Positions 18,001-21,000 of a stretch of DNA of 64,000 nucleotides are shown in pieces (position 1 is the first letter of the stretch; every line of letters begins with the position of its first letter). Made by a program: the position numbers. This DNA is from Escherichia coli O157:H7 (GTDB lineage: Bacteria; Pseudomonadota; Gammaproteobacteria; Enterobacterales; Enterobacteriaceae), in assembly GCF_013167455.1 (NCBI RefSeq), contig NZ_CP038328.1; one strand, written 5' to 3'.

Positions 18001-21000
18001 TGTGAGGCATTAACCATGCTCTGCTGTCAGGTGATGGGGAACGACGTGGCGATCAACATGGGGGGCGCTTCCGGTAACTTTGAACTGAACGTCTTCCGTC
18101 CAATGGTGATCCACAATTTCCTGCAATCGGTGCGCTTGCTGGCAGATGGCATGGAAAGTTTTAACAAACACTGCGCAGTGGGTATTGAACCGAATCGTGA
18201 GCGAATCAATCAATTACTCAATGAATCGCTGATGCTGGTGACTGCGCTTAACACCCACATTGGTTATGACAAAGCCGCGGAGATCGCCAAAAAAGCGCAT
18301 AAAGAAGGGCTGACCTTAAAAGCTGCGGCCCTTGCGCTGGGGTATCTTAGCGAAGCCGAGTTTGACAGCTGGGTACGGCCAGAACAGATGGTCGGCAGTA
18401 TGAAAGCCGGGCGTTAATCTGCAACATACAGGTGCAGCCGTGGAATGATCAAACGAAGCGGCTGCGCCTGAGGTTTATAACGGTGCTGCACATTGTCGGC
18501 ATCGTAATTTAACAACTCACCAACGTCCGGCACGCCCGCACCATTATCCCGATTAATCAGTGCAATCAGCGGTGTAGGGCAGGCGTGTTGGACTTGTTTT
18601 TGATCTCCTTTGTACCAGACGCGGGCAATCGGCTGCACCTTCACCGGACGTTTGATTTTTAACTTCGCATTCTGTGGCAGGGCAGCGATATCCTGATACT
18701 CTCGCTCCAGTTTTCTTTGCCACTCCTCGCGCGTCCACGGTGCGACACTGCGTGGTGATTTCAGGCTTTTTTCCAGCTGTGCCAGGACTTCATCACGATG
18801 CAAATTCTTAATGATATGTTTATTAGCCCAACCAAAGCGTAAAGTGGCGGGATCGTGCAGAACGGTGAGCGTGCGGTAAGCATTAAGGGTGATCAGCCCC
18901 GGCAAATGACGATGCACCCATTCAAAACGTGCCGCGGTGGGGAGTTCTGATTCAACCGTGACGATATGCTCGAACGTGGTCTTGAGTTTATTGATGTGCT
19001 GAATATGACTGACCAACGCTGCTTGCGAAAGGTTATCGACCTGGTAACACAACACGCCAGGCAGACGGACAGCTGCTTTGCTGCTGCGATTTTCGGACTG
19101 TTGTTGAATAAATAAATGACGGAAATGACGCAACGCCTGCGACTGCGCGTCGTTGCCGAGATGTTGTTTCACCTCAATACGATTAAGCGGATTATGCTCA
19201 TCCTCTTTTTTTACCTCCGGCAAAGAGAACACGCGGGCAACCAATAGCTTGTGTTGCTCAAGATGAGCGGCAAATGCAGCCAGCTCTTGTTCCATCTGGC
19301 GAAAAGTAGTGTTGAGTCGGTCTACGAGATCGTAACGCGCCATAATATTAACCACTTTAGTTACAACATCCTTAATTTATAGCACAGTGGTGGTGACTTG
19401 ACCACCGTGCGCGTAGTGTCAAGCAGAGGTAAATTGCGGGATGTTATGCCATAACGGCCAGCTAAACGAGAAGCGGGCACCACCCAGTTCGCTGGTGTCA
19501 CAATTAACCGTACCGCCCATTGCCAGTGCTATAGAGTGGACAATTGCCAGCCCCAGCCCGCAGCCGCCGGTTGAGCGATCCCGGCTGGGATCGAGGCGAA
19601 CAAAAGGTTCAAAGATATGTTCGCGGTTTTCTGGGGCAATCCCTGGGCCATCATCCTCAACAATTAATGTCGCTCTATTCCCCGACAGTAGCAGGCTGGT
19701 TTCAACCGTTGAATGGCAGTAGCGCAGGGCATTATTGAGCAAATTATCCAGCACGCGCTCCATTAAGCGCATATCCAACGCCGCATAATGGCCTTGCATG
19801 AGCGTTTTTATCCGTACCGTTTTATCGGGCGTTACTGCCTGAATATCTGCCAGATGCGTTGACAGCCACAACGGCAGGTCTGGTTCGCTAAGATGAAGCT
19901 CGTTTTGTGGGCGATCGAGTCGGGCATAAGTCAGCAGCTCTTCAATTAAAGCTTCAAGTTGACTGATATCACGATTCAACGCCTGGGATTCGGCGGCGCT
20001 CAGGTTATCGCTCATCTCCAGTCGATAACGCAGGCGCACTAACGGTGTTCGCAGTTCGTGAGCGATACCGTCAATAAGCTGTTTTTTGCTGGCAATCAAG
20101 GCGTTGATATTGTCCGCCATCTGGTTAAATGCGATACCAAGTCGTTCAAAGCTCGAACCCTCATCAAAGTGGATACGTTCATTGAGATGCCCATCGCCAA
20201 ATCGTTGCGCCGCTGCTTCCAGTTTTAACATATCCTGCCAGTGCGGACGCATCCAGATAAACACCGGAAAGGCGAGGGAAATAGCAATAAAAGCGATCAG
20301 GGCGATATCCAGCAATCGCATCTGATGGAGATAATAAAGATAAGGAACAGGACCAACTGCCAGCACGTAGTGGCTGCGCGGGATACGCTGCAAAAAAGTG
20401 TACTGATCGTCCAGGGCGACAATTTCGCCGCCACGCAGCCGGTGCATGGAAATATCATCAAGATGGTATTTACTCAGTGGCTCGACTCGCAGATCGAAAG
20501 AGAGATTTAAATCCATCTCTTTCAGCGTCTTACCCCAGTCATGTGGGGGGATCTCACGCAATTCGCTGCGCATCAGATACAGCGAACTGTTCATCAAATC
20601 ATCCAGCGACTGTTTGCCCGCGCGTTCGGCGGTAAATTTGTACACCAACCCAACCAGCAGAGACATCACAAGGAAGCAGACAAACAATAACAGGTAAAAC
20701 TGGATAAACAGTTTTTTCATCGCTTATTCCCATGCATGAGGCGCAAAAAGATAGCCTTTGTTACGCACAGTTTTAATGCGATAAGGTTCAGCGGCGTTAT
20801 CGAGCAGTTTTTTTCTTAACCGCGAAATAGCCACGTCCACGCTACGATCCAGGCCGTCATAACTGACGCCGCGTAAATTTTTCAGCAATGCATCGCGGTC
20901 CATGATTTGCCCGGCATGGGTAGCTAATTCCCACAATAATTCGAAATCAGCTGTCGAGAGCGAGATTTCAGTGTTAGCCAGGGTGACTACGCGGTTGATA

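Follow-up and report, generated by a model that had tools for sequence, protein, structure and literature searches.

Directly in front of a tus gene, the stretch of E. coli O157:H7 DNA analysed here (64,000 nucleotides of contig NZ_CP038328.1, hereafter called the window) carries a sequence resembling the Ter sites to which the replication terminator protein Tus binds. This raises the question of whether the sequence is a genuine Ter site, to which of the known sites it corresponds, and what it says about the place of the window on the chromosome. In our view it is almost certainly TerB of an O157:H7-type E. coli chromosome, that is, a Tus-bound polar barrier for replication forks and at the same time the operator of tus. 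TerB at this position is already known, and the anatomy of the site holds nothing unusual. The locus comprises the following features, of which the promoter and ribosome-binding elements were read from the sequence:

17014..18417, plus strand: fumC, convergent with tus
18414..19343, minus strand: tus, encoding the DNA replication terminus site-binding protein (309 aa; assigned by identity to K-12, Pfam and PDB)
19351..19357, minus strand: putative ribosome-binding site AAGTGGT, overlapping Ter positions 20-23
19354..19376, minus strand: the site taken to be TerB, a 23-bp Tus-binding replication terminator (21/23 bases as in K-12 TerB; 30.8 bits; unique in the window)
19358..19372, minus strand: conserved Ter core, positions 5-19, AGGATGTTGTAACTA (invariant across 80 species except at position 7)
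19376..19384, minus strand: extended -10-like element TGcTATAAA
19399..19404, minus strand: putative -35 hexamer TGGTCA, 4/6 matches, 17 bp upstream of the -10
19419..20720, minus strand: rstB, encoding a sensor kinase, upstream neighbour of tus

The minus strand of 19354-19376 reads ATTAAGGATGTTGTAACTAAAGT, which is the O157-type allele of TerB; position 1 of the site corresponds to 19376 and position 23 to 19354. This full 23-mer is the sole match in the window with three or fewer mismatches to K-12 TerB, while shuffled sequences lead one to expect 0.00 such matches. A mismatch in the critical core was sought by alignment with the Ter consensus and none was found, either at position 6 or at positions 8-18/19, so that the Ter site proposed here by the initial annotation is borne out with a perfect core. 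The G6/C6 base pair lies at 19371, with G6 on the minus and C6 on the plus strand, and the site is the only perfect match in the window to the core pattern GNRNGTTGTAACKA. On a Ter matrix its score is 30.8 bits, compared to 29.7-32.5 bits for the strong K-12 sites TerA-D and 13.4 bits for the second-best match in the window. The matrix was built from the sequences of TerA-J, of which TerB and TerC were verified against NC_000913.3.

The 8-mer core GTTGTAAC (19360-19367, minus strand) is by itself not significant. It occurs 4 times in the window compared to 1.6 expected occurrences, and 8 of 100 shuffles reached 4 as well. The three further copies, at 3067, 43774 and 54424, were each scored on the Ter matrix, and no second real Ter site was found in the window by the matrix scan. 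One candidate, at 43765-43787 on the plus strand (CGTACAGATGTTGTAACCATTGT, 13.4 bits), contains a perfect ATGTTGTAAC and is oriented opposite to TerB. It was rejected as a pseudo-site on account of an A at position 6, a C at position 18 and its location within the ynfE coding sequence. The match probably arose by chance or is ORF-embedded, and would be unable to form the C6 lock.

Alignment and synteny with MG1655 and with O157:H7 PV15-279 place the site in the spacer between rstB and tus, which is 75 bp long and contains both the promoter and Ter. The genes follow the K-12 order, reverse-complemented (rstA-rstB-Ter-tus/fumC), and the ends of fumC and tus overlap by 4 bp. The cognate Tus is encoded in the same genome (18414-19343). 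It is identical to K-12 Tus in 307 of 309 residues, the differences being I23A and L69Q, and it matches Pfam PF05472 (E=1e-136) and the crystallised protein (PDB 1ECR/2I05/2I06, E=6e-207; 99% identical). According to the RefSeq annotations tus starts with the ATG at 19343, and the same start is present in all 80 homologous loci described below. A GTG at 19355 suggested by ORF calling was rejected as a mechanical upstream extension into Ter. Since ten bases (19344-19353) intervene between Ter position 23 and the first base of the ATG, the offset between Ter and tus is 11, in agreement with the 11 bp given by the initial annotation. Alignment with NC_000913.3 places the site on the tus strand, also as claimed, and its orientation is the same as that of K-12 TerB. 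Sequence, orthology, orientation and conservation of the site as well as the identity of Tus are direct observations.

K-12 TerB (AATAAGTATGTTGTAACTAAAGT, NC_000913.3 1684226-1684248) shares with the window site the rstB-TerB-tus locus, the strand, the orientation and the 10-bp gap to the ATG. Judged by sequence, the window site is its positional ortholog. Both have the same bases at positions 1, 3-6 and 8-23, the same -10 element, the same ribosome-binding region and the same start of tus; the window site differs by A2T and T7G. The rstB-tus spacer as a whole shows five substitutions compared to MG1655, these two in Ter and three outside. T2 and G7 are both found in K-12 TerC (ATATAGGATGTTGTAACTAATAT, NC_000913.3 1609157-1609179, read directly from the genome), which also has the entire core from position 5 to 20 in common with the window site (19/23 identical) and differs from it at positions 3, 4, 21 and 22. 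TerC belongs to the same site cluster as TerB and blocks the same fork direction. Unlike TerB it is located at another locus, about 75 kb beyond TerB in K-12, without linkage to tus and without a promoter role. Goodall et al., whose comparison included the O157:H7 strain TW14359, assign positions 6 and 8-18 of Ter to the core and regard positions 1-5, 7 and 19-23 as variable. TerC is among the high-affinity sites and is the main termination site (Toft et al. 2021, PMC8707476). Because T2 and G7 are at variable positions and occur in the high-affinity TerC, there is no reason to think that the O157 allele is impaired.

Within E. coli, the region was found in 5423 of 5426 complete genomes. The TerB region of the window is 100% identical to O157:H7 genomes, and 803 of the 5426, O157:H7 included, contain the exact 53-base stretch that runs from the -10 element through Ter to the ATG. 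The T2/G7 allele of TerB is typical of O157:H7. Ten sampled E. coli genomes showed changes only at positions 2-4 and 7, with positions 6 and 8-23 unvarying. A different arrangement was seen in E. coli KTa005 (NZ_CP147084.1 2212588-2213291), in which ISEcp1 is located directly upstream of tus. There the similarity to the rstB-tus spacer ends a few bases ahead of the putative -35, and rstB is not annotated; Ter, the -10 element and tus are intact beside ISEcp1.

To describe conservation beyond E. coli, one scan of species-representative genomes with Tus was used, which yielded loci from 80 species of Enterobacteriaceae (Escherichia, Citrobacter, Salmonella, Enterobacter, Klebsiella, Raoultella, Kosakonia, Kluyvera and others) with Tus proteins 69-98% identical to that of the window. 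Each of the 80 species has a single Ter upstream of the start codon, on the strand of tus, at a distance of 6-27 nt and most commonly of 9. No variation was seen among the 80 at positions 5, 6 and 8-19. At position 7, 74 species have T, 4 have G and 2 have C, and at position 20, 73 have A; little information is contained in positions 1-4 and 21-23 or in the spacer around the site. These loci comprise 309 kb, in which G.ATGTTGTAACTA is found exactly 80 times, with one copy in each locus. Proteus (Tus 51% identical) and Morganella (43%) possess a tus-adjacent Ter with G6 kept, too. Upstream of the plasmid or chromid tus of Aeromonas and Pseudoalteromonas (31-35% identity), no E. coli-type Ter was detected within 3 core mismatches. 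With its location directly 5' of tus, on the same strand and with G6 conserved, the window site has the properties of the 'vicinal' Ter (Toft et al. 2021, PMC8707476). In other Enterobacterales this element differs in its outer positions and its spacing (6-27 nt), which vary between genera, and the Ter of Morganellaceae differs by a T at position 5.

Relatives of Tus are also encoded in 1281 records of a plasmid collection, 1275 of them with less than 60% identity. These are mostly conjugative plasmids of Klebsiella, Salmonella, Escherichia and Citrobacter, and several of the top matches are chromosomes or chromosome fragments filed as plasmids. In the two distant cases checked, no E. coli-type Ter was found beside the plasmid tus.

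The arrangement had been described by the initial annotation as known biology, and this is correct: terB is located within the tus promoter and Tus autoregulates through it (PMC8347550, PMC8707476). For the repression of tus by Tus in K-12, both papers cite Roecklein 1991 and Natarajan 1991. In the window, the last base of the -10-like element TGcTATAAA is Ter position 1, and a -10-like hexamer abuts or overlaps Ter in 79 of the 80 species. A consensus promoter scan of 18300-19600 reported no promoter; it missed TGcTATAAA because it requires T at hexamer position 6. The element, read by eye, would be the -10 of the tus promoter, which is backed by the literature placing terB there. TGGTCA is a possible -35 hexamer. 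AAGTGGT is probably the ribosome-binding site of tus, and the GG that directly follows Ter is retained in 59 and 56 of the 80 species. Transcription of tus is expected to start inside Ter, at about positions 7-9. With the -10 reaching Ter position 1 and transcription expected to begin within the site, Tus bound at TerB would occlude RNA polymerase, and tus would be repressed by its own product.

A perfect TTGACA hexamer at 19417-19422 on the minus strand, which results from a C-to-T change compared to K-12 and lies over the rstB stop codon, was rejected as -35, a usable -10 being absent 16-18 bp downstream. It is probably meaningless. A scan of the spacer revealed no terminator-like site between rstB and tus. 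Any read-through from rstB would reach the non-permissive face of Ter, and Mohanty and Bastia are said to have found that this face also blocks RNA polymerase.

Both roles of the site depend on binding: Tus, encoded immediately downstream, would bind the 23-bp TerB as a monomer. Tus binding, fork arrest and repression at the O157-type allele would be expected by analogy to the experiments in K-12. The non-permissive face of Ter is the end with position 1, where unwinding by DnaB causes C6 to flip into a pocket of Tus and the complex to lock (PMC4499146). A fork coming from the rstB side, i.e. from right to left in the window, would reach Ter position 1 first. DnaB tracking on the strand carrying G6 would free C6 at 19371 on the plus strand, which would flip into the cytosine pocket of Tus and lock the complex. 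With C6 at 19371 of the plus strand and position 1 turned toward rstB, it is the right-to-left forks that would be blocked. Forks moving from left to right, the normal direction for the replichore, would reach position 23 first and displace Tus. The GC skew is positive on the plus strand of the window, and KOPS motifs are distributed 4:0 in favour of this strand, a count too small for significance alone. On this indirect evidence from the skew and the KOPS motifs on the plus strand, normal replication appears to run from left to right, so that its forks would encounter the permissive face, which is what a fork trap demands. The orientation of TerB is thus consistent with a fork trap whose permissive face is turned toward the forks from oriC. 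TerB arrests forks only as a back-up to TerC (PMC8707476), and its role as a fork barrier in vivo would for this reason be occasional.

The initial annotation had further regarded the site as a marker of the replication terminus region. This applies in so far as the window is inside the fork-trap zone of one replichore, in its oriC-distal part. It is not the terminus itself: a search with up to 3 mismatches found no dif site in the window, the second Ter is lacking as described above, and the GC skew does not switch its sign across the window.

Elsewhere in the window, one arm of a lambdoid prophage occupies 48546-64000. Its start is located just beyond ynfA, and of rspA only the first ~85 bp are left. 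This junction is common to 304 of 5426 E. coli genomes, with O157:H7 strains among the matches listed. In the matching prophage region of strain 86-24 a frameshifted integrase, excisionase, dicB, hokD, rusA and the antiterminator Q are annotated, and the annotation of that strain identifies an 823-aa exonuclease at 49567-52038 of the window (minus strand). Three tRNA genes at 62669-62918 are followed by a gene of the 'tellurite resistance TerB family', which despite its name is unrelated to the replication site TerB. The tqsA gene is intact in the window (28655-29689, minus strand). In O157:H7 PV15-279 a 14.9-kb island is inserted in tqsA, with the junction near 29553-29561 of the window. It carries genes for an integrase, a primase, a PerC-like regulator, a major capsid protein, a portal protein, a prohead protease and a terminase, and no annotated tail genes; presumably it resembles a capsid-forming phage-inducible island.

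Three other explanations of the site have to be considered. The probability that 19354-19376 is a chance or pseudo-Ter match without Tus-related function is practically nil. The 8-mer core by itself is no rarer than chance, and a core-bearing pseudo-site is also present at 43765-43787, but the full-length match is not expected at all by chance and exceeds the runner-up by 30.8 to 13.4 bits. Moreover, the site lies between genes, is the ortholog of the TerB characterised by experiment and does not vary across 80 species, so that the chance explanation is already refuted. It is also very improbable that T2 and G7 make the O157-type allele a weakened or altered TerB, with a Tus affinity, a lock half-life or an autoregulatory set-point unlike those in K-12. 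Two substitutions in the 23-mer are accompanied by two in Tus, G7 is a minority state across species (4/80), and TerC, which contains T2 and G7, gives a lower ChIP signal than TerB in K-12 (PMC8707476). However, positions 2 and 7 are both outside the conserved core defined by Goodall et al., TerC, in which these two bases recur, binds Tus with high affinity, forms the lock and serves as the main site of termination (PMC8707476), and the allele has become fixed in no fewer than 803 genomes.

More weight attaches to the idea that TerB is in vivo essentially the operator of tus, with an incidental or rare function as fork barrier, and that its conservation reflects gene regulation and not termination, although we consider this unlikely, too. 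The linkage of Ter to tus with short spacing and an abutting -10 is universal in the 80 species, as would be seen for an operator. In addition, TerB follows TerC as the second site of the cluster and serves as a back-up (PMC8707476), and the conservation of terB is confounded by its location in the promoter (Goodall et al., PMC8347550). Yet the roles of operator and barrier are compatible, and the orientation of the site is strictly conserved as well, which fits a fork trap. Significant pausing at TerB has been published, and a TerB placed ectopically in the non-permissive orientation is lethal (PMC8707476). G6, which matters far more for the lock than for duplex binding (PMC4499146), is invariant in 80/80 species. 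We favour a TerB that is operator and polar fork barrier at once.

There is a slim chance that T2/G7 of TerB together with I23A/L69Q of Tus shift the occupancy by Tus or the lifetime of the locked complex in the O157:H7 lineage. If true, this would alter the set-point of Tus and hence the strength of the fork trap in a pathogenic lineage compared to K-12. For the window itself, TerB shows that the DNA is from an O157:H7-type E. coli chromosome, namely from its rstAB-tus-fumC region, and also gives the local direction of normal replication. For the family, the result from 80/80 species leads independently to a view already published, according to which the tus-linked Ter is conserved and probably the ancestral element of the Tus system.
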